Assembly: GCF_056712565.1 (NCBI RefSeq)
Contig: NZ_CM160072.1
DNA length: 64,000 nucleotides
Strand: one strand, 5' to 3'
Shown piece after piece: positions 8,120 through 47,500 of this stretch; the first letter of the stretch is position 1, and the number at the start of each line of letters is the position of its first letter. The position numbers and the translations under genes are program-made. The notes under the pieces were generated by a model, which worked only from the letters and a program-made list of their open reading frames with translations, searched no databases and was not told the DNA's origin.

Positions 8120-8206
8120 TGGTGCGAGGGGGGGGACTTGAACCCCCACGTCCGTAAGGACACTAACACCTGAAGCTAGCGCGTCTACCAATTCCGCCAC
8201 CTTCGC
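8120..8206 (-). tRNA. leuV: tRNA-Leu (anticodon CAG), 87 nt including CCA
   Basis: Reverse complement reads GCGAAGGTGGCGGAATTGGTAGACGCGCTAGCTTCAGGTGTTAGTGTCCTTACGGACGTGGGGGTTCAAGTCCCCCCCCTCGCACCA; long variable arm typical of tRNA-Leu. Gene name assigned by order. Confidence 0.9.
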
Positions 8207-8240
8207 ACAGTCATCTTACTTTTTTTGATATCGCCTCGTT

Positions 8241-8327
8241 TGGTGCGAGGGGGGGGACTTGAACCCCCACGTCCGTAAGAACACTAACACCTGAAGCTAG
8301 CGCGTCTACCAATTCCGCCACCTTCGC
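8241..8327 (-). tRNA. leuP: tRNA-Leu (anticodon CAG), variant copy
   Basis: Same 87-nt sequence as neighbours except one base (window position 8280, a instead of g; C to U in the tRNA variable arm). Confidence 0.85.
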
Positions 8328-8355
8328 CCAGTGCGAGCAATATCAACGTGGTTTT

Positions 8356-8442
8356 TGGTGCGAGGGGGGGGACTTGAACCCCCACGTCCGTAAGGACACT
8401 AACACCTGAAGCTAGCGCGTCTACCAATTCCGCCACCTTCGC
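8356..8442 (-). tRNA. leuQ: tRNA-Leu (anticodon CAG)
   Basis: Identical to the 8120-8206 copy; promoter-proximal member of the three-gene tRNA operon. Confidence 0.9.
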
Positions 8443-14383: not shown

Positions 14384-15457
14384 GTGGGGCAGCGAATACC
14401 TGTAACGCTTGGTAATATTGCGCCGTTGTCGCTAAGGCCGTTCCAGCCTGGACGGATTGCTCTGGTGTGCGAAGGCGGCGGACAACGTGGAATTTTCACG
14501 GCTGGCGTGCTGGATGAGTTTATGCGCGCGCAGTTTAATCCTTTCGATCTTTATCTCGGCACATCTGCCGGGGCGCAGAACCTCTCGGCGTATATCTGCA
14601 ATCAGCCCGGTTACGCGCGCAAAGTCATCATGCGTTACACCACAAAACGCGAATTTTTCGATCCATTGCGCTTTGTCCGTGGAGGAAATCTTATCGATCT
14701 CGACTGGCTGGTGGAGGCCACCGCAAGCCAGATGCCGTTGCAAATGGACACCGCAGCGCGGTTATTTGACAGCGGCAAATCGTTTTATATGTGCGCCTGT
14801 CGTCAGGATGACTATGCGCCGAATTACTTTTTGCCAACTAAACAAAACTGGCTGGATGTGATTCGCGCCTCCAGTGCGATACCTGGCTTTTATCGTAGCG
14901 GAGTGTCGCTGGAAGGTATTAACTACCTGGATGGTGGGATCAGTGATGCGATCCCGGTTAAAGAGGCGGTAAGGCAGGGAGCAAAAACGTTGGTCGTCAT
15001 CCGCACTGTGCCGTCACAAATGTACTACACGCCACAGTGGTTCAAACGCATGGAACGCTGGCTGGGTGACAGTAGCCTGCAGCCGCTGGTCAATCTGGTG
15101 CAGCATCATGAAACCAGCTATCGTGAGATTCAGCAATTTATTGAGAAACCACCGGGCCAGCTGCGGATATTCGAAATTTATCCGCCGAAGCCATTGCATA
15201 GTATTGCGCTCGGCAGTCGGATTCCGGCGCTGCGTGAAGACTATAAACTTGGGCGTTTATGTGGGCGTTATTTTCTGGCAACGGTCGGTAAATTATTGAC
15301 TGAAAAAGCGCCGCTGAGCCGCCATCTGGTGCCGGTGGTGACGCCGGAGTCGATCGTTATTCCGCCTGCGCCAGTCGCCAACGATACGCTGGTTGCTGAA
15401 GTGAGCGACGCTCCGCAGGCGAACGACCCGACATTTAACAATGAGGATCTGGCTTGA
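14384..15457 (+). CDS. yjjU: Patatin-like phospholipase-family protein YjjU
   Basis: ORF-track frame 14348..15457; GTG at 14384 gives MGQRIPVTLGN...; oxyanion-hole motif CEGGGQRG and GTSAG serine nucleophile motif. Confidence 0.9.
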   Translation: MGQRIPVTLGNIAPLSLRPFQPGRIALVCEGGGQRGIFTAGVLDEFMRAQFNPFDLYLGTSAGAQNLSAYICNQPGYARKVIMRYTTKREFFDPLRFVRGGNLIDLDWLVEATASQMPLQMDTAARLFDSGKSFYMCACRQDDYAPNYFLPTKQNWLDVIRASSAIPGFYRSGVSLEGINYLDGGISDAIPVKEAVRQGAKTLVVIRTVPSQMYYTPQWFKRMERWLGDSSLQPLVNLVQHHETSYREIQQFIEKPPGQLRIFEIYPPKPLHSIALGSRIPALREDYKLGRLCGRYFLATVGKLLTEKAPLSRHLVPVVTPESIVIPPAPVANDTLVAEVSDAPQANDPTFNNEDLA

Positions 15458-16233
15458 TTTGCCGTTTTATCGACACCCACTGCCATTTTGATTTCCCGCC
15501 GTTTAGTGGCGATGAAGAGGCCAGCCTGCAACGCGCGGCACAAGCGGGCGTAGGCAAGATCATTGTTCCGGCGACAGAGGCGGAAAATTTTGCCCGCGTG
15601 CAGGCGTTAGCGGAAAAATATCAACCGCTGTATGCCGCATTGGGCTTACATCCTGGTATGTTGGAAAAACATAGCGATGTGTCTCTTGATCAGCTACAGC
15701 AGGCGCTGGAAAGGCATCCGGCGAAGGTGGTGGCGGTGGGGGAGATCGGTCTGGATCTCTTTGGCGACGATCCGCAATTTGAGAGGCAGCAGTGGTTACT
15801 CGACGAACAACTGAAACTGGCGAAACGCTACGATCTGCCGGTGATCCTGCATTCACGACGCACGCACGACAAACTGGCGATGCATCTTAAACGCCACGAT
15901 TTACCGTGCACTGGCGTGGTTCATGGTTTTTCCGGCAGCCTGCAACAGGCCGAACGGTTTGTGCAACTGGGCTACAAAATTGGCGTAGGCGGGACTATCA
16001 CCTATCCACGCGCCAGTAAAACCCGCGATGTCATCGCAAAATTACCGCTGGCATCGTTGTTGCTGGAAACCGACGCACCAGATATGCCGCTCAATGGTTT
16101 TCAGGGGCAGCCTAATCGCCCTGAACAGGCCGCCCGTGTGTTTGCCGTGCTTTGCGAGTTACGACCGGAACCGGCGGATGAGATTGCCGAAGTGTTGCTT
16201 AATAACACCTATACGTTGTTTAACGTGCCGTAG
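15454..16233 (+). CDS. yjjV: TatD-family metal-dependent hydrolase YjjV
   Basis: 259-aa ORF from TTG; N-terminal IDTHCHFDF TatD motif; overlaps yjjU stop by 4 nt. Confidence 0.9.
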   Translation: MICRFIDTHCHFDFPPFSGDEEASLQRAAQAGVGKIIVPATEAENFARVQALAEKYQPLYAALGLHPGMLEKHSDVSLDQLQQALERHPAKVVAVGEIGLDLFGDDPQFERQQWLLDEQLKLAKRYDLPVILHSRRTHDKLAMHLKRHDLPCTGVVHGFSGSLQQAERFVQLGYKIGVGGTITYPRASKTRDVIAKLPLASLLLETDAPDMPLNGFQGQPNRPEQAARVFAVLCELRPEPADEIAEVLLNNTYTLFNVP

Positions 16234-16449: not shown

Positions 16450-17313
16450 TCACAAATATAGCGCCGGAAATATTAACCGGCTCACCCCGCGCTCCCGTAA
16501 CGCATCAGCCAGTTGTTCCACATCCTCCGGCGTGGCGCTCGGCCAGCTTTGCGCCTCGCCATACACGCCGTGGGCATGAAACGCGTTCAGGCGTACCGGA
16601 ACATCGCCAAGTCCCTTGATTAACGCCGCCAGTTCTTCGATATGTTGCAAATAATCCACCTGGCCAGGGATTACCAGCAAACGCAGTTCCGCCAGCTTAC
16701 CGCGCTCTGCCAGCAAACAGATGCTGCGCTTGATCTGCTGATTATCGCGTCCGGTTAATTGCTGATGACATTCGCTCCCCCACGCTTTGAGATCGAGCAT
16801 TGCGCCGTCACACACCGGGAGCAATTTTTCCCAGCCGGTTTCGCTCAACATGCCGTTACTGTCCACGAGGCAGGTGAGATGGCACAGTTGCGGATCGTTT
16901 TTGATGGCAGTAAACAGCGCCACCACAAACGGCAACTGGGTCGTGGCTTCGCCGCCGCTTACCGTTATCCCTTCAATAAACAGAACCGCTTTGCGGACAT
17001 GGTTAAGCACCTCGTCCACGCTCATGGATTGCGCCATTGGCGTAGCATGTTGCGGACACATCTTCAGGCAGGTATCACATTGCTCGCAGACAGCCGCGCT
17101 CCACGCCACTTTGCCGTCGACAATCTGCAACGCCTGATGCGGACACTGCGGCACGCACTCTCCGCAATCATTACAGCGCCCCATCGTCCACGGATTGTGA
17201 CAGTTTTTGCAGCGCAGATTGCAGCCCTGCAAAAACAGAGCCAGACGACTGCCTGGCCCGTCAACGCAGGAGAAGGGGATAATCTTACTGACTAAAGCGC
17301 ATCTGCTGTTCAT
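16450..17313 (-). CDS. yjjW: Glycyl-radical-enzyme activating enzyme (radical SAM) YjjW
   Basis: 287-aa ORF; radical [11 protein letters not shown] near N-terminus plus two ferredoxin-like clusters [12 protein letters not shown] and [12 protein letters not shown]. Confidence 0.9.
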
Positions 17314-18835
17314 GGCTTATCACGCGCGGCTGGCGTTCCAGAATACGAGTGTTGCGTGCGGCTTCTTCTCCCAGCCAGGTGGTGTTGGTGCGTGAACCTT
17401 CGGCGCGATATTTTTCTAAATCCGACAAACGCACCATATAACCGGTAACGCGAACCAGATCGTTACCGCTGACATTGGCGGTAAATTCACGCATTCCAGC
17501 TTTAAAGGCACCGAGGCAAAGCTGTACCAGCGCCTGCGGATTACGTTTGATGGTTTCGTCGAGCGTCAGAATGTCGCTGATGCCGGAATAATAATAAGCA
17601 TGATGCGGGGCGACAGTTTGCAGATGGGTAATCGGATCTGGCTCATCACCATACGGCAAACGCGCGCCCGGCGTGGTGCCGATATCGGAACTTATCCCCG
17701 ACTGTGCGTGTAACATGGCGCGTTTTTGCCAGCCATATTTCACGGGGGTATTGGCGACAAACTCCGCCAGTTGCGCGCTAATGCGATAACCCACTTCATT
17801 TGCGGCGGCCTCTTTACCGTAGCGTGCGGCAATCCCTTCTTTTTCACACAGCAAGTTAACCGCTTCCGCCAGCCCATACATGCCAAACATCGGCACAAAA
17901 CGTTCAGGGTTAATCAGCCCTTCTTTCACCAGGAAGCTATTCTCAAAGAAGTGTGATTGTTGATAGAGGAATTCACACCGCGCATCGATGATGGCGATCT
18001 GCTGTTGGCAGTAGTGCGGTAGAGTGCGCGTAAAGAAGTCCTCCAGCGATTCACTGCGCTCGGCAATGGCTTTCAGGTTTAGGCGTACCAGCGTGCTGCC
18101 ACCACCCGCCAGCGGCAGTGAGTTGTAACAGCTCACAATCCCGTAGCCCCCTTTTGTGAAAATTTTATCATGCACCGGACCGTTGGCGATGTGCGGTTTG
18201 CTACATTCACAGATGTTTTTCGCCACTTCCAGCAGCAGGTCATCAGGGGTGATATCAGGATCGTAGATAAAGGTCAGGTTCGGTGAAACCTGCTTCAGCT
18301 CTGCGTCTGCACGTAATATCGCACGGGTAATGGGCGAATCAGACGGGCCGATATTGGCATGCATAAAGGCGTCTGGCAGGGTTCTGTCGAGGTAACGCCA
18401 GAAACGTTTTATTCGAATATCGATCTCGTCTTGTGTTAGAATTCTAACATACGGTTGCAACAACGCATCCAGTTGCCCCAGGTAGACCGGCATCGATGTG
18501 ACCGACGGTACATGGTGGTAAAGAATGGTCAGCAGAGAGAGTGCGTCATCAAGGTCTTTCGCGCCTTCCAGCTCCAGCCATTCGGAACCGTTGGCCAAAA
18601 AACGGGCGTAATCGGGTAAGACATAGCGCGGTTTGTACGGCGCATGACCTTCAAACATATCGCAGATTACCCCCTCATCCAGCGCGCGGCGGGCTTCGGC
18701 AGGCAGCTGTGGGTAAGGCAGATTGTTTTCTGCTTCCAGTGCCAGAAAATGGCGCTTCTGCTCCGGGCTAAGTACCGGGCTGGTGACAATTTGCTGGCAA
18801 CGTTGTTGCAGTGCATTTTCATGAGAAGTGGGCAT
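17285..18835 (-). CDS. yjjI: Glycine-radical-enzyme-family protein YjjI (DUF3029), substrate unknown
   Basis: 516-aa ORF; C-terminal region contains RVTGY resembling the glycyl-radical RVSGY motif; 29-nt overlap with downstream yjjW. Confidence 0.85.
18434..18449 (+). promoter_or_regulatory. DeoR operator O1 (deoP1), lying inside the yjjI coding sequence
   Basis: Perfect 16-bp palindrome TGTTAGAATTCTAACA; exactly 599 bp upstream of the second copy at 19033. Confidence 0.8.
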
Positions 18836-18929
18836 CTTCTTTTCCTTTTATGCCGAAGGTGATGCGCCATTGTAAGAAGTTTCGTGATGTTCACTTTGAT
18901 CCTGATGCGTTTGCCACCACTGACGCATT

Positions 18930-19030
18930 CATTTGAAAGTGAATTATTTGAACCAGATCGCATTACAGTGATGCAAACTTGTAAGTAGATTTCCTTAATT
19001 GTGATGTACATCGAAGTGTGTTGCGGAGTA
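18930..19030 (+). promoter_or_regulatory. deoP2 upstream region with CRP/CytR-type half-sites
   Basis: TGTGA-like half sites (agtgaattatttgaacc; aattgtgatgtacatcgaagtgtg) upstream of O2. Assignment to CRP/CytR rests on recalled deoP2 architecture; exact sites not resolved. Confidence 0.4.
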
Positions 19031-19032
19031 GA

Positions 19033-19048
19033 TGTTAGAATACTAACA
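19033..19048 (+). promoter_or_regulatory. DeoR operator O2 (deoP2)
   Basis: Near-perfect palindrome TGTTAGAATACTAACA, 45 bp upstream of the deoC ATG. Confidence 0.8.
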
Positions 19049-19092
19049 AACTCGCAAGGTGAATTTTATTGGCGACAAGCCAGGAGAATGAA

Positions 19093-19872
19093 ATGACTGA
19101 TCTGAAAGCAAGCAGCCTGCGTGCACTGAAATTGATGGACCTGACCACCCTGAATGACGACGACACCGATGAGAAAGTGATCGCCCTGTGTCATCAGGCC
19201 AAAACTCCGGTCGGCAATACCGCCGCTATCTGTATCTATCCTCGCTTTATCCCGATTGCTCGCAAAACGCTGAAAGAGCAGGGCACCCCGGAAATCCGTA
19301 TCGCTACGGTAACTAACTTCCCACACGGTAACGACGACATCGAAATCGCGCTGGCAGAAACCCGTGCGGCAATCGCCTACGGTGCCGATGAAGTTGACGT
19401 GGTGTTCCCGTACCGCGCGCTGATGGCGGGTAACGAGCAGGTTGGTTTTGACCTGGTGAAAGCCTGTAAAGAGGCTTGCGCTGCGGCGAACGTACTGCTG
19501 AAAGTGATTATTGAAACCGGCGAACTGAAAGACGAAGCGCTGATCCGTAAAGCGTCTGAAATCTCCATCAAAGCGGGTGCTGACTTCATCAAAACCTCTA
19601 CCGGTAAAGTGGCTGTGAATGCGACGCCGGAAAGCGCGCGCATCATGATGGAAGTGATCCGCGATATGGGCGTAGAAAAAATCGTTGGTTTCAAACCGGC
19701 GGGCGGCGTGCGTACTGCGGAAGATGCGCAGAAATATCTCGCCATTGCAGATGAACTGTTCGGTGCTGACTGGGCTGATGCGCGTCACTACCGCTTTGGT
19801 GCTTCCAGCTTGCTGGCAAGCCTGCTGAAAGCTCTGGGCCACGGCGACGGTAAGAGCGCCAGCAGCTACTAA
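19093..19872 (+). CDS. deoC: Deoxyribose-phosphate aldolase
   Basis: ORF-track frame 19069..19872; ATG at 19093 gives [25 protein letters not shown] (259 aa); first gene of the deoCABD cluster. Confidence 0.95.
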
Positions 19873-19949
19873 GGCTTGATTTGCCGGATGATGCAGCGAT
19901 GCTCATCCGGTTCCCCGATTACCTCGTCTCTTTTCCACGGGAGGTTACC

Positions 19950-21272
19950 TTGTTTCTCGCACAAGAAATTATTCGTAAAAAACGTGATGGTCATGCGCTG
20001 AGTGATGAAGAAATTCGTTTCTTTATCAACGGCATTCGCGACAACACTATCTCCGAAGGGCAGATTGCCGCCCTCGCGATGACCATTTTCTTCCACGATA
20101 TGACAATGCCTGAGCGTGTCTCGCTGACCATGGCGATGCGAGATTCAGGAACCGTTCTCGACTGGAAAAGCCTGCATCTGAATGGCCCGATTGTTGATAA
20201 ACACTCGACCGGCGGTGTCGGCGATGTGACTTCGCTGATGTTGGGGCCGATGGTCGCTGCCTGTGGCGGCTATATTCCGATGATCTCCGGTCGCGGCCTC
20301 GGTCATACTGGCGGTACGCTCGACAAACTGGAATCCATCCCTGGCTTCGACATTTTCCCGGATGACAACCGTTTCCGCGAAATTATTAAAGACGTCGGCG
20401 TGGCGATTATCGGCCAGACCAGCTCACTGGCTCCGGCGGATAAACGTTTCTACGCGACCCGCGATATTACCGCAACCGTGGATTCAATCCCGCTGATCAC
20501 CGCCTCTATTCTGGCGAAGAAACTGGCGGAAGGTCTGGACGCGCTGGTGATGGACGTGAAAGTGGGTAGCGGCGCGTTTATGCCGACCTACGAACTCTCT
20601 GAAGCCCTTGCCGAAGCGATTGTTGGCGTGGCTAACGGCGCTGGCGTGCGCACCACCGCGCTGCTCACCGATATGAATCAGGTACTGGCCTCCAGTGCAG
20701 GTAACGCGGTTGAAGTTCGTGAAGCGGTGCAGTTCCTGACGGGTGAATATCGTAACCCGCGTCTGTTTGATGTCACGATGGCACTGTGCGTGGAGATGCT
20801 GATCTCCGGCAAACTGGCGAAAAATGACGCCGAAGCGCGCGCGAAATTGCAGGCGGTGCTGGACAACGGTAAAGCGGCAGAAGTCTTTGGTCGTATGGTC
20901 GCGGCACAAAAAGGCCCGACCGACTTCGTTGAGAACTACGCGAAGTATCTGCCGACAGCGATGCTGACGAAAGCAGTCTATGCTGATACCGAAGGGTTTG
21001 TCAGTGAAATGGATACCCGCGCACTGGGGATGACAGTGGTTGCAATGGGCGGCGGACGCCGTCAGGCATCTGACACCATCGATTACAGCGTCGGCTTTAC
21101 TGATATGGCGCGTCTGGGCGACCAGGTAGACGGTCAGCGTCCGCTGGCAGTTATCCACGCGAAAGACGAAAACAGCTGGCAGGAAGCGGCGAAAGCGGTG
21201 AAAGCGGCAATTAAACTTGCCGATAAAGCACCGGAAAGCACACCAACTGTCTATCGCCGTATCAGCGAATAA
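19950..21272 (+). CDS. deoA: Thymidine phosphorylase
   Basis: ORF-track frame 19881..21272; TTG at 19950 gives (M)[25 protein letters not shown] (440 aa). Confidence 0.93.
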
Positions 21273-21302: not shown

Positions 21303-22547
<1,245 letters not shown>

Positions 22548-22603: not shown

Positions 22604-23323
22604 ATGGCTACTCCACACATTAATGCAGAAATGGGCGATTTTGCTGACGTAGTTTTGATGCCAGGTGACCCGCTGCGTGCGAAGTATATTGCTGAAACTT
22701 TCCTTGAAGATGCCCGTGAAGTGAACAACGTTCGCGGTATGCTGGGCTTCACTGGTACTTACAAAGGCCGCAAAATTTCCGTAATGGGCCACGGTATGGG
22801 TATCCCGTCCTGCTCCATCTACACCAAAGAACTGATCACTGATTTCGGCGTGAAGAAAATTATCCGCGTTGGTTCCTGTGGCGCTGTTCTGCCGCACGTA
22901 AAACTGCGCGACGTCGTTATCGGTATGGGTGCCTGCACCGATTCCAAAGTTAACCGCATCCGTTTTAAAGACCATGACTTTGCCGCTATCGCTGACTTCG
23001 ACATGGTGCGTAACGCGGTAGACGCGGCAAAAGCACTGGGCGTTGATGCTCGTGTTGGTAACCTGTTCTCCGCTGACCTGTTCTACTCTCCGGACGGCGA
23101 AATGTTCGACGTGATGGAAAAATACGGCATCCTCGGCGTGGAAATGGAAGCGGCTGGTATCTACGGCGTCGCTGCAGAATTTGGCGCGAAAGCCCTGACC
23201 ATCTGCACCGTGTCTGACCACATCCGCACTCACGAGCAGACCACTGCCGCTGAGCGTCAGACCACCTTCAACGACATGATCAAAATCGCGCTGGAATCCG
23301 TTCTGCTGGGCGATAAAGAGTAA
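22604..23323 (+). CDS. deoD: Purine nucleoside phosphorylase
   Basis: ORF-track frame 22547..23323; ATG at 22604 gives [34 protein letters not shown] (239 aa). Confidence 0.95.
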
Positions 23324-44103: not shown

Positions 44104-46566
44104 ATGCGAGTGTTGAAGTTCGGCGGTACATCAGTGGCAAATGCAGAACGTTTTCTGCGGGTTGCCGATATTCTGGAAAGCAATGCCAGGCAGGGGCAGG
44201 TGGCGACCGTCCTCTCTGCCCCCGCCAAAATTACCAACCATCTGGTAGCGATGATTGAAAAAACCATTAGCGGCCAAGATGCTTTACCCAATATCAGCGA
44301 TGCCGAACGTATTTTTGCCGAACTTCTGACGGGACTCGCCGCCGCCCAGCCGGGATTTCCGCTGGCACAATTGAAAACTTTCGTCGACCAGGAATTTGCC
44401 CAAATAAAACATGTCCTGCATGGCATTAGTTTGTTGGGGCAGTGCCCGGATAGCATCAACGCTGCGCTGATTTGCCGTGGCGAGAAAATGTCGATCGCCA
44501 TTATGGCCGGCGTGTTAGAAGCGCGTGGTCACAACGTTACCGTTATCGATCCGGTCGAAAAACTGCTTGCAGTGGGGCATTACCTCGAATCTACCGTTGA
44601 TATTGCTGAGTCCACCCGCCGTATTGCGGCAAGCCGCATTCCGGCTGACCACATGGTGCTGATGGCTGGTTTCACTGCCGGTAATGAAAAAGGCGAGCTG
44701 GTGGTTCTGGGACGCAACGGTTCCGACTACTCCGCTGCGGTGCTGGCGGCCTGTTTACGCGCCGATTGTTGCGAGATCTGGACGGATGTTGACGGTGTTT
44801 ATACCTGCGATCCGCGTCAGGTGCCCGATGCGAGGTTGTTGAAGTCGATGTCCTATCAGGAAGCGATGGAGCTTTCTTACTTCGGCGCTAAAGTTCTTCA
44901 CCCCCGCACCATCACCCCCATCGCCCAGTTTCAGATCCCTTGCCTGATTAAAAATACCGGAAATCCTCAAGCTCCAGGTACGCTCATTGGTGCCAGCCGT
45001 GATGAAGACGAATTACCGGTCAAGGGCATTTCCAATCTGAATAACATGGCAATGTTCAGCGTTTCCGGCCCGGGGATGAAAGGGATGGTTGGCATGGCGG
45101 CGCGCGTCTTTGCAGCGATGTCACGCGCCCGTATTTCCGTGGTGCTGATTACGCAATCATCTTCCGAATACAGTATCAGTTTCTGCGTTCCGCAAAGCGA
45201 CTGTGTGCGAGCTGAACGGGCAATGCAGGAAGAGTTCTACCTGGAACTGAAAGAAGGCTTACTGGAGCCGTTGGCGGTGACGGAACGGCTGGCCATTATC
45301 TCGGTGGTAGGTGATGGTATGCGCACCTTACGTGGGATCTCGGCGAAATTCTTTGCCGCGCTGGCCCGCGCCAATATCAACATTGTCGCCATTGCTCAGG
45401 GATCTTCTGAACGCTCAATCTCTGTCGTGGTCAATAACGATGATGCGACCACTGGCGTGCGCGTTACTCATCAGATGCTGTTCAATACCGATCAGGTTAT
45501 CGAAGTGTTTGTGATTGGCGTCGGTGGCGTTGGCGGTGCGCTGCTGGAGCAACTGAAGCGTCAGCAAAGCTGGTTGAAGAATAAACATATCGACTTACGT
45601 GTCTGCGGTGTTGCTAACTCGAAGGCACTGCTCACCAATGTACATGGCCTTAATCTGGAAAACTGGCAGGAAGAACTGGCGCAAGCCAAAGAGCCGTTTA
45701 ATCTCGGGCGCTTAATTCGCCTCGTGAAAGAATATCATCTGCTGAACCCGGTCATTGTTGACTGTACTTCCAGCCAGGCAGTGGCGGATCAATATGCCGA
45801 CTTCCTGCGCGAAGGTTTCCACGTTGTTACGCCGAACAAAAAGGCCAACACCTCGTCGATGGATTACTACCATCAGTTGCGTTATGCGGCGGAAAAATCG
45901 CGGCGTAAATTCCTCTATGACACCAACGTTGGGGCTGGATTACCGGTTATCGAGAACCTGCAAAATCTGCTCAATGCTGGTGATGAATTGATGAAGTTCT
46001 CCGGCATTCTTTCAGGTTCGCTTTCTTATATCTTCGGCAAGTTAGACGAAGGCATGAGTTTCTCCGAGGCGACCACACTGGCGCGGGAAATGGGTTATAC
46101 CGAACCGGACCCGCGAGATGATCTTTCTGGTATGGATGTGGCGCGTAAGCTATTGATTCTCGCTCGTGAAACGGGACGTGAACTGGAGCTGGCGGATATT
46201 GAAATTGAACCTGTGCTGCCCGCAGAGTTTAACGCCGAGGGTGATGTCGCCGCTTTTATGGCGAATCTGTCACAGCTCGACGATCTCTTTGCCGCGCGTG
46301 TGGCGAAGGCCCGTGATGAAGGAAAAGTTTTGCGCTATGTTGGCAATATTGATGAAGATGGCGTCTGCCGCGTGAAGATTGCCGAAGTGGATGGTAATGA
46401 TCCGCTGTTCAAAGTGAAAAATGGCGAAAACGCCCTGGCCTTCTATAGCCACTATTATCAGCCGCTGCCGTTGGTACTGCGCGGATATGGTGCGGGCAAT
46501 GACGTTACAGCTGCCGGTGTCTTTGCTGATCTGCTACGTACCCTCTCATGGAAGTTAGGAGTCTGA
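44104..46566 (+). CDS. thrA: Bifunctional aspartokinase I / homoserine dehydrogenase I
   Basis: ORF-track frame 44062..46566; ATG at 44104 gives [48 protein letters not shown] (820 aa). Confidence 0.97.
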
Positions 46567-46567
46567 C

Positions 46568-47500
46568 ATGGTTAAAGTTTATGCCCCGGCTTCCAGTGCC
46601 AATATGAGCGTCGGGTTTGATGTGCTCGGGGCGGCGGTGACACCTGTTGATGGTGCATTGCTCGGAGATGTAGTCACGGTTGAGGCGGCAGAGACATTCA
46701 GTCTCAACAACCTCGGACGCTTTGCCGATAAGCTGCCGTCAGAGCCACGGGAAAATATCGTTTATCAGTGCTGGGAGCGTTTTTGCCAGGAGCTTGGCAA
46801 GCAAATTCCAGTGGCGATGACTCTGGAAAAGAATATGCCGATCGGTTCGGGCTTAGGCTCCAGCGCCTGTTCAGTGGTCGCGGCGCTGATGGCGATGAAT
46901 GAACACTGCGGCAAGCCGCTTAATGACACTCGTTTGCTGGCTTTGATGGGCGAGTTGGAAGGGCGTATCTCCGGCAGCATTCATTACGACAACGTGGCAC
47001 CGTGTTTTCTTGGTGGTATGCAGTTGATGATTGAAGAAAACGACATCATCAGTCAGCAAGTGCCAGGGTTTGATGAGTGGCTGTGGGTGCTGGCGTATCC
47101 GGGGATTAAAGTCTCGACGGCAGAAGCCAGGGCTATTTTACCGGCGCAGTATCGCCGCCAGGATTGCATTGCGCACGGGCGACATCTGGCAGGCTTCATT
47201 CACGCCTGCTATTCCCGTCAGCCTGAGCTTGCCGCGAAGCTGATGAAAGATGTTATCGCTGAACCCTACCGTGAACGGTTACTGCCAGGCTTCCGGCAGG
47301 CGCGGCAGGCGGTTGCGGAAATCGGCGCGGTAGCGAGCGGTATCTCCGGCTCCGGCCCGACTTTGTTCGCTCTGTGTGACAAGCCGGATACCGCCCAGCG
47401 CGTTGCCGACTGGTTGGGTAAAAACTACCTGCAAAATCAGGAAGGTTTTGTTCATATTTGCCGGCTGGATACGGCGGGCGCACGAGTACTGGAAAACTAA
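46568..47500 (+). CDS. thrB: Homoserine kinase
   Basis: 310-aa [27 protein letters not shown]...; GHMP kinase motif [10 protein letters not shown]. Confidence 0.97.

Follow-up and report, generated by a model that had tools for sequence, protein, structure and literature searches.

How does one stretch of DNA encode part of a protein and, at the same time, carry control sites for the genes next to it on the other strand? The question is raised by the yjjI/deoC locus of the window, by which we mean the whole stretch of 64,000 nucleotides analyzed here. A first-pass annotation of this DNA had placed a DeoR operator of the deo operon inside the yjjI reading frame, and we asked what the element is, whether the overlap is genuine, and what follows from it for both neighbors.

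E. coli ZJ3920 shares the 2-kb region with 100% identity, and 5423 of 5426 complete E. coli genomes carry it, with its genes annotated as yjjW / yjjI / deoC. K-12 MG1655 aligns to it without gaps at 98.2% identity; 36 of 2000 positions differ, and none of these falls within the three operators. By this comparison, the window is judged to be E. coli DNA. In a profile search, YjjI matched TIGR04040 with 787.8 bits over amino acids 11-504 of 516 and PF11230 over amino acids 22-504. yjjI and yjjW share 29 nt, the end of the one overlapping the start of the other. The genes and the regulatory elements discussed below are collected in Table 1.

Table 1. Genes, operators, promoter elements and CRP sites of the yjjI/deoC locus, in coordinates of the window.
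Feature	Coordinates	Strand	Sequence or description	Basis
yjjW	16450-17313	-	Glycyl radical enzyme activase	TIGR04041, 398.8 bits
yjjI	17285-18835	-	YjjI-family glycyl radical enzyme, 516 aa	ORF and profiles; K-12 b4380
deoOE	18155-18170		Upstream DeoR operator (assigned), TGTGAAAATTTTATCA; inside yjjI codons 222-227	12/16 versus the O1 palindrome
deoO1	18434-18449		DeoR operator at P1, perfect 16-bp palindrome TGTTAGAATTCTAACA; inside yjjI codons 129-134	Pattern scan
Candidate extended -10 of deoP1	18434-18442	+	TGT-TAGAAT, in the left half of O1	Read from sequence
deoP1 leader (predicted)	18450-19092	+	~640 nt	Inferred from P1/O1, yjjI start 18835 and deoC start 19093
Candidate distal CRP site of deoP2	18947-18962		TTTGAACCAGATCGCA; yjjI/deoC intergenic	Read from sequence
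Proximal CRP site of deoP2	19000-19015		TGTGATGTACATCGAA	Read from sequence
deoO2	19033-19048		DeoR operator at P2, TGTTAGAATACTAACA, 15/16	Pattern scan
Candidate extended -10 of deoP2	19033-19041		TGT-TAGAAT, within O2	Read from sequence
deoC	19093-19872	+	Deoxyribose-phosphate aldolase, gene 1 of deoCABD	TIGR00126, 292.8 bits; K-12 annotation concurs
deoA	19950-21272	+	TTG start	ORF, translation, K-12 gene order
deoB	21324-22547	+		ORF, translation, K-12 gene order
deoD	22604-23323	+		ORF, translation, K-12 gene order

The first-pass annotation had described a perfect palindrome and a near-perfect copy, 599 bp apart, and a pattern scan found exactly this pair, at 18434 and 19033. No other sequence in the 64-kb window matches the DeoR palindrome with three or fewer mismatches; the shuffle control gave an expectation of 0.14, and two or more matches were seen in 0 of 100 shuffles. 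The O1 form, TGTTAGAA-TTCTAACA, is matched at 16/16 positions at 18434, and the O2 form, TGTTAGAA-TACTAACA, which scores 15/16, stands at 19033 and equals the published O2. Both sites are identical to published DeoR operator palindromes (PMC5326754). From start to start, O1 and O2 are separated by 19033 - 18434 = 599 bp, upstream of deoC; in K-12 MG1655 they begin at 4616664 and 4617263, and the spacing is unchanged. The DeoR-controlled promoters P1 and P2 have been reported to lie 599 bp apart (PMC3334521), in agreement with the earlier claim that this is the classic deoO1/deoO2 spacing, and single operators O1 and O2, ~600 bp apart and one per tandem promoter, are bound by DeoR (PMC8053113). 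Operator identity, the 599-bp promoter spacing and the tandem-promoter map thus identify the sites as deoO1/P1 and deoO2/P2. No usable DeoR ChIP or genomic SELEX data for the deo locus came up in a literature search, and none of four operator strings occurs in the papers whose text was searched literally.

Both O1 and O2 contain an extended -10-like element (Table 1), and a sigma-70 consensus scan calls neither promoter because both -35 hexamers are poor. O1 has been located at the upstream one of the two tandem promoters (PMC8053113, PMC3334521). Transcription from P1 would start at ~18449-18451, and its leader is predicted to lie antisense to ~386 nt at the 5' end of the yjjI coding sequence, and to cross both the yjjI promoter region and deoP2. 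An Rfam scan of positions 17000-19400 found no RNA family, the P1 leader included, and terminator-like matches from a scan were at chance level only. Since P1 lies within yjjI and fires toward the yjjI promoter, these two promoters are convergent; the first-pass description of the deo operon as divergent from yjjI holds for P2 but not for P1. The candidate distal CRP site of deoP2 is presumably CRP-2, given the tandem CRP sites of this promoter. The proximal site corresponds to the motif TGTGATGTATATCGAA under a CRP ChIP-seq peak that was assigned to yjjI/deoC in ETEC H10407 (PMC4287617).

We conclude that the region is, with little room for doubt, the classical regulatory region of E. coli deoCABD, with P1, O1 and OE lying inside yjjI; for DeoR binding, looping and the inducer, we draw on the literature. 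The deoCABD operon breaks down nucleosides and deoxynucleosides. Multimeric DeoR would bind the three 16-bp operators OE, O1 and O2, and since the putative extended -10 of one promoter lies in O1 and that of the other in O2, the bound repressor would block RNA polymerase. By bridging any pair of operators, DeoR would loop out 279, 599 or 878 bp, in single or double loops, and this looping would raise operator occupancy and make repression of deo tight. DeoR is known to bind palindromes and to have deoxyribose-5-phosphate as its inducer (PMC5326754, PMC8053113), which would release it from the DNA. P2 would also be under the control of CRP and CytR, via the tandem CRP sites at 18947-19015. The yjjI/deoC intergenic region is only 257 bp long, so P1, O1 and OE fall inside the oppositely oriented yjjI. 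This DNA is therefore under two constraints, one from YjjI residues 129-134 and 222-227 and the other from the deo operators and promoter.

A second reading of the same layout is that O1 and OE also, or mainly, regulate yjjI-yjjW, either because DeoR or its loop enclosing the yjjI promoter would block transcription or because derepressed P1 would interfere. The geometry is suggestive: the P1 start at ~18450 on the plus strand faces yjjI, which is transcribed leftward from upstream of 18835, and the two are ~400 bp apart. Moreover, yjjI is a real, expressed and FNR-activated gene, and an FNR ChIP peak lies in the yjjI/deoC intergenic region (PMC3688515, PMC2634741). Gene neighborhoods also speak for a link. 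A genome-collection scan with one genome per species located 295 yjjI loci, of which 80, from Escherichia to Proteus, were compared, and protein look-ups supplied four more; among these 84 loci, deoC adjoins yjjI on the opposite strand in 75, and yjjI-yjjW has a TatD-like gene next to it in 74 and a NupC-like nucleoside transporter gene in 14. However, published genetics give all three operators to deo repression, and yjjI co-clusters with anaerobic nitrate/FNR genes rather than with the deo regulon (PMC3228777). Regulation of yjjI would, in addition, supplement the deo function of these sites and not replace it. A literature search for papers naming both DeoR and yjjI found none.

Because P1 is antisense to the FNR-activated yjjI, convergent transcription or DeoR roadblocks could affect yjjI expression; any effect of the embedded operators or of P1 on yjjI would be a consequence predicted from this arrangement. 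DeoR roadblocks or loops, together with head-on transcription from P1, would then make yjjI expression dependent on deoxyribose-5-phosphate. We regard such a role of O1 and OE in yjjI-yjjW expression as possible but rather unlikely, and retain the reading of the region as the control region of deoCABD.

That reading includes a third operator. The first-pass annotation had cited it as reported about 878 bp further upstream, had described it as not obvious there and had named a weak half-site as the nearest candidate. Instead, the OE of Table 1 precedes O1 by 279 bp and O2 by exactly 878 bp, and it belongs to the 5 positions among 63,985 in the window that score at least 12/16 against the O1 palindrome. 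As 279 + 599 = 878, the figure of 878 bp is the distance between OE and O2, not between OE and O1. Published work places OE ~300 bp upstream of O1 and describes loops, visible in the electron microscope, between all sites (PMC8053113), and natural DeoR looping reaches ~900 bp (PMC4217526). Judged by the distance arithmetic, by the published ~300-bp and ~900-bp statements and by conservation, OE is plainly present at 18155-18170. The same site is also CRP-site-like, matching at 8 of 10 core positions. The exact OE sequence was reportedly defined by Valentin-Hansen in 1986, Dandanell in 1987 and Amouyal in 1989.

The alternative, which puts OE ~878 bp beyond O1 on its upstream side, in the weak half-site near 17560-17575, had in its favor only the figure of "878 bp upstream" and a half-site-like string, CGTCAGAA, which is indeed present there. 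However, all 16-mers starting within 17540-17580 stay below 7/16, with the nearest 10/16 match at 17581, and a count by hand gives 6/16 for the exact 878-bp offset, 17556-17571. Synonymous diversity around the half-site is average (1.17-1.27 bits, with 1.19 at the half-site itself, versus a gene mean of 1.13), so that it is not conserved, and the published OE-O1 distance, with the sum of the two spacings, fits the site at 18155-18170. We consider the half-site placement extremely improbable and effectively refuted.

Conservation across the yjjI loci bears on why these sequences are kept. O1 is present at the same codons with 14-16/16 matches in 74 of 74 deoC-adjacent loci examined, as is OE with 11-13/16, mostly as an identical 16-mer, and wherever deoC adjoins and the intergenic region could be scanned, that region holds O2 with 11-15/16 matches. 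Loci without an adjacent deoC (four Proteus loci, L084 and L085) have none of the three operators, and their amino acids differ at these positions. In the four Proteus loci, the operator codons match O1 at 8-9/16 and OE at 4-5/16, and the residues read YVG[E/S/N]LT[E/Q] and QDAVFGK, compared with YVRILTQ and NDKIFTK. The OE-O1 spacing is 279 bp at all loci with operators because it is locked by the yjjI reading frame. The O1-O2 spacing ranges from 567 to 675 bp (mode 601) and is 599 bp in Escherichia and Salmonella; thus, the exact value of 599 is a species detail and not a conserved requirement. Such variation fits the published finding that DeoR can still form loops when the distance grows to kilobases (PMC8053113).

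Third-codon-position entropy was determined for 70 distinct Enterobacteriaceae yjjI sequences in 511 six-codon windows, with no prior positions used. O1 ranked first of the 511 windows with 0.05 bits and OE second with 0.09 bits, against the gene mean of 1.13. O1 keeps AGA and CTA even though they are rare in local genes (~2% of Arg and Leu codons), and the OE 16-mer is unchanged in lineages with only 66% YjjI identity. The frozen synonymous sites, and the presence of the operators only with an adjacent deoC, argue that the operators are under purifying selection at the DNA level. Across the aligned loci, this selection on O1 and OE is seen to co-occur with deoC adjacency.

A prediction was then made from protein alone, namely that YjjI proteins of ~66% identity with "YVGILTE ... 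DKIFT" carry the operators and others do not. In both motif-bearing cases, P0117 and P0110, the three operators are present, at unchanged codon positions (2/2 as predicted); deoC-deoA-deoB lies alongside in the P0117 locus, and the P0110 contig stops before the expected position of deoC. Two YjjI contigs without the motif residues have neither operators nor deoC, again as predicted. From these alignments, the operators appear visibly to have constrained the amino acid sequence of YjjI: Ile is fixed at residue 132, Gly has given way to Arg or Lys at residue 131, and D-K/N-I-F-T is kept at residues 223-226 only where deo adjoins. Operator identity, the spacings, the coding overlap and purifying selection together with deoC adjacency are all shown by the sequences compared here.

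Could the palindromes be kept because the YjjI protein or its mRNA needs them, with their likeness to DeoR operators incidental? O1 and OE do lie within the conserved YjjI domain, and another conserved run in yjjI has such an origin. This run, at 18396-18412, is the longest conserved nucleotide run in the gene (17 nt, CGCCAGAAACGTTTTAT) and is located just upstream of P1. Its core, AAACGTTT, is typical of LacI-family sites. The possibility that the run is a further regulator site or an UP element was rejected, since it encodes KRFWRY and is equally conserved in Proteus without a deo neighbor; protein constraint therefore explains the run. For O1 and OE, by contrast, the synonymous sites are frozen and the disfavored AGA and CTA codons retained. 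Furthermore, YjjI homologues not adjoining deoC differ in amino acids and match at only 4-9/16 of the positions at the operator codons, the same motif recurs as O2 in noncoding DNA, and the operator spacings agree with the literature. A protein or mRNA need as the cause of the palindromes is thus very hard to credit, and selection for the deo operators remains the reading that we adopt.

The coding half of the overlap is equally well founded. O1 occupies nt 387-402 of the yjjI coding sequence, on the opposite strand to the operon it controls, in codons 129-134 (TAT GTT AGA ATT CTA ACA = Y V R I L T). The earlier placement of O1 ~400 bp inside yjjI is therefore upheld, and the reading frame is genuine by family profiles. 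In a tblastn comparison with the 80 genome-collection loci, all alignments reach at least back to residue 24, most of them begin at residue 1, and every alignment but one is ungapped. Among the 70 Enterobacteriaceae sequences, yjjI entropy at codon positions 1, 2 and 3 is 0.28, 0.20 and 1.13 bits, a pattern that, in terms of entropy, is the signature of a translated gene. The first-pass annotation had considered a revised, shorter yjjI start, which would remove the overlap. Such a start is excluded by the span of the profiles, TIGR04040 covering amino acids 11-504 and PF11230 amino acids 22-504; the first in-frame Met past codon 134 is M168, and a start there would lose about one-third of the conserved domain. 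That the overlap is an annotation artifact, with yjjI truly starting past codon 134 or being a pseudogene, has a negligible chance of being right, since no supporting point was found and the end-to-end profile alignments, the nearly always ungapped tblastn coverage of the N-terminal part, the cost of an M168 start and the far better conservation of codon positions 1 and 2 than of position 3 all stand against it.

Several other matches in the window were set aside. One of them, a CRP-like motif at 18498-18513 that lies close to an intragenic CRP ChIP peak from the literature (PMC4287617), is not conserved (1.55 bits). Palindrome-like matches of 11-12/16 at 8153, 8274 and 8389 are inside three tRNA-Leu(CAG) genes, and a further one at 46553 probably arose by chance. 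A scan for FNR motifs at three mismatches was too permissive to be informative.

When compared with known systems, the element is the deoO1/O2/OE and deoP1/P2 system of E. coli deoCABD itself: it is the same locus, and the operator sequences, the 599-bp spacing, the ~300-bp offset of OE upstream of O1 and the placement with respect to deoC agree without difference. For long-range repression through DNA looping in bacteria, the deo operators count among the founding examples. The operator system is thus already known biology, and the coding overlap is genuine. Auxiliary operators inside genes are also familiar from lac, where O2 lies inside lacZ, and from gal, where OI lies inside galE. The likeness is that of a looping auxiliary operator embedded in a coding sequence, so that the DNA is both coding and regulatory. 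In lac and gal, however, the internal operator is in the first gene of the regulated operon and within the same transcription unit. In deo, unlike in these systems, two operators and a complete promoter are housed in a neighboring, oppositely oriented and functionally separate gene, and the promoter is antisense to that gene. The deoP1/yjjI pair further resembles convergent promoter pairs with transcriptional interference and the overlapping divergent operons known as excludons, a likeness of geometry alone. As in excludons, P1 and the yjjI promoter face each other over ~400-450 bp, and the leader is antisense to the 5' part of the neighbor.

What this analysis adds to the known system is modest: the placement of OE at 18155-18170, the assignment of 878 bp to the OE-O2 distance, the evidence of dual constraint, and the co-occurrence of the operators with deoC adjacency. 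The locus is a very clean natural case of regulatory DNA overriding the choice of codons, and even of amino acids, in a neighboring gene. Because family-wide no other part of yjjI shows a synonymous-constraint signal as strong as those of O1 and OE, scans for synonymous constraint could reveal embedded regulatory sites elsewhere. The findings also raise the question of whether YjjI, an uncharacterized glycyl radical enzyme, is under the control of DeoR or of antisense transcription that starts at P1. We put forward, as a tentative idea against which the balance currently leans, that the embedding of P1, O1 and OE may be more than an accident of packing and may functionally couple the orphan YjjI-YjjW pair to deoxynucleoside catabolism. 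If this is true, the genomic company that yjjI-yjjW repeatedly keeps, namely deo, nupC-like and TatD-like genes, would suggest that YjjI acts anaerobically in nucleoside or deoxyribose metabolism.

Several sequence features within yjjI, the glycyl radical enzyme gene that hosts deoP1 and two DeoR palindromes (O1 and OE), could be read as regulatory. A published ChIP-seq analysis of CRP in ETEC reported a peak within yjjI, ~544 bp upstream of the CRP site of deoP2; on our sequence, this peak falls at most ~25 bp from O1. The CRP motif assigned by MEME reads TGTGACCGACGGTACA in this strain and is not conserved across genera, and O1 and OE themselves resemble a CRP site (TGT.A...T.ACA). The intragenic peak could reflect weak binding of CRP to O1 or cross-linking through a DeoR-mediated loop to deoP2. 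The sole sigma-70-like match of the region (TCGCCA, a 16-nt spacer, and TAAAAT preceded by TG) lies on the yjjI sense strand and overlaps OE, whose reverse complement, TGATAAAAT, is an extended -10-like element. This match could be an internal yjjI promoter or a mere by-product of the operator sequence.

Coordinates of the features discussed
Feature	Position in the window	Strand
tRNA-Leu(CAG) genes, three in tandem	8120-8442	minus
yjjV, TatD-like hydrolase gene	15454-16233	
yjjW start/yjjI end overlap	17285-17313	
Sigma-70-like match	18162-18189	minus
Conserved run upstream of deoP1	18396-18412	
ETEC CRP ChIP-seq peak	~18464	
MEME-assigned CRP motif	18498-18513	
Putative deoC-deoA spacer indel	~19873-19949	
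Distant palindrome-like match	46553-46568	

The longest nucleotide run in yjjI with ≥90% conservation among 74 loci, CGCCAGAAACGTTTTAT, has a palindromic core, AAACGTTT, and lies directly upstream of deoP1. It encodes a KRFWRY motif, and its conservation extends to Proteus, in which yjjI lacks a deo neighbor; protein constraint, not a role as a regulator site, probably maintains the run. At the other end of the gene, yjjI overlaps the start of yjjW, the activase gene, by 29 nt, and synonymous diversity at codons 508 to 516 (0.20 to 0.25 bits) is the lowest after the two operators, O1 and OE, a pattern that fits a coding overlap and translational coupling.

Away from deo, each of the three tRNA-Leu(CAG) genes contains an 11-12/16 resemblance to the DeoR palindrome (CGTAAGRACACTAACA); none of these chance resemblances is an operator. 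A 12/16 match distant from every deo gene, AGTTAGGAGTCTGACA, is probably also fortuitous.

Compared with K-12 coordinates, the genes that follow deoC are displaced by 49 bp, which implies, from coordinates only, an indel of ~49 bp in the deoC-deoA spacer between this strain and MG1655. A 574-amino-acid database protein from a 2.9-kb contig (P0004) matches 91% of the query at 100% identity and carries both YjjI-like and DeoC Pfam domains. Since yjjI and deoC lie on opposite strands in the window, P0004 probably results from chimeric assembly or faulty gene calling, not from a real YjjI-DeoC fusion.

The yjjI-yjjW pair recurrently adjoins nucleoside-related genes: deoCAB(D); yjjV, in 74 loci; and a gene for a NupC-family nucleoside transporter, in 14 loci (L082, L085, L075, and 11 others), which in L085 lies immediately upstream in the same orientation. 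This genomic association suggests that YjjI, an orphan glycyl radical enzyme, may have a role in nucleoside or deoxyribose metabolism.
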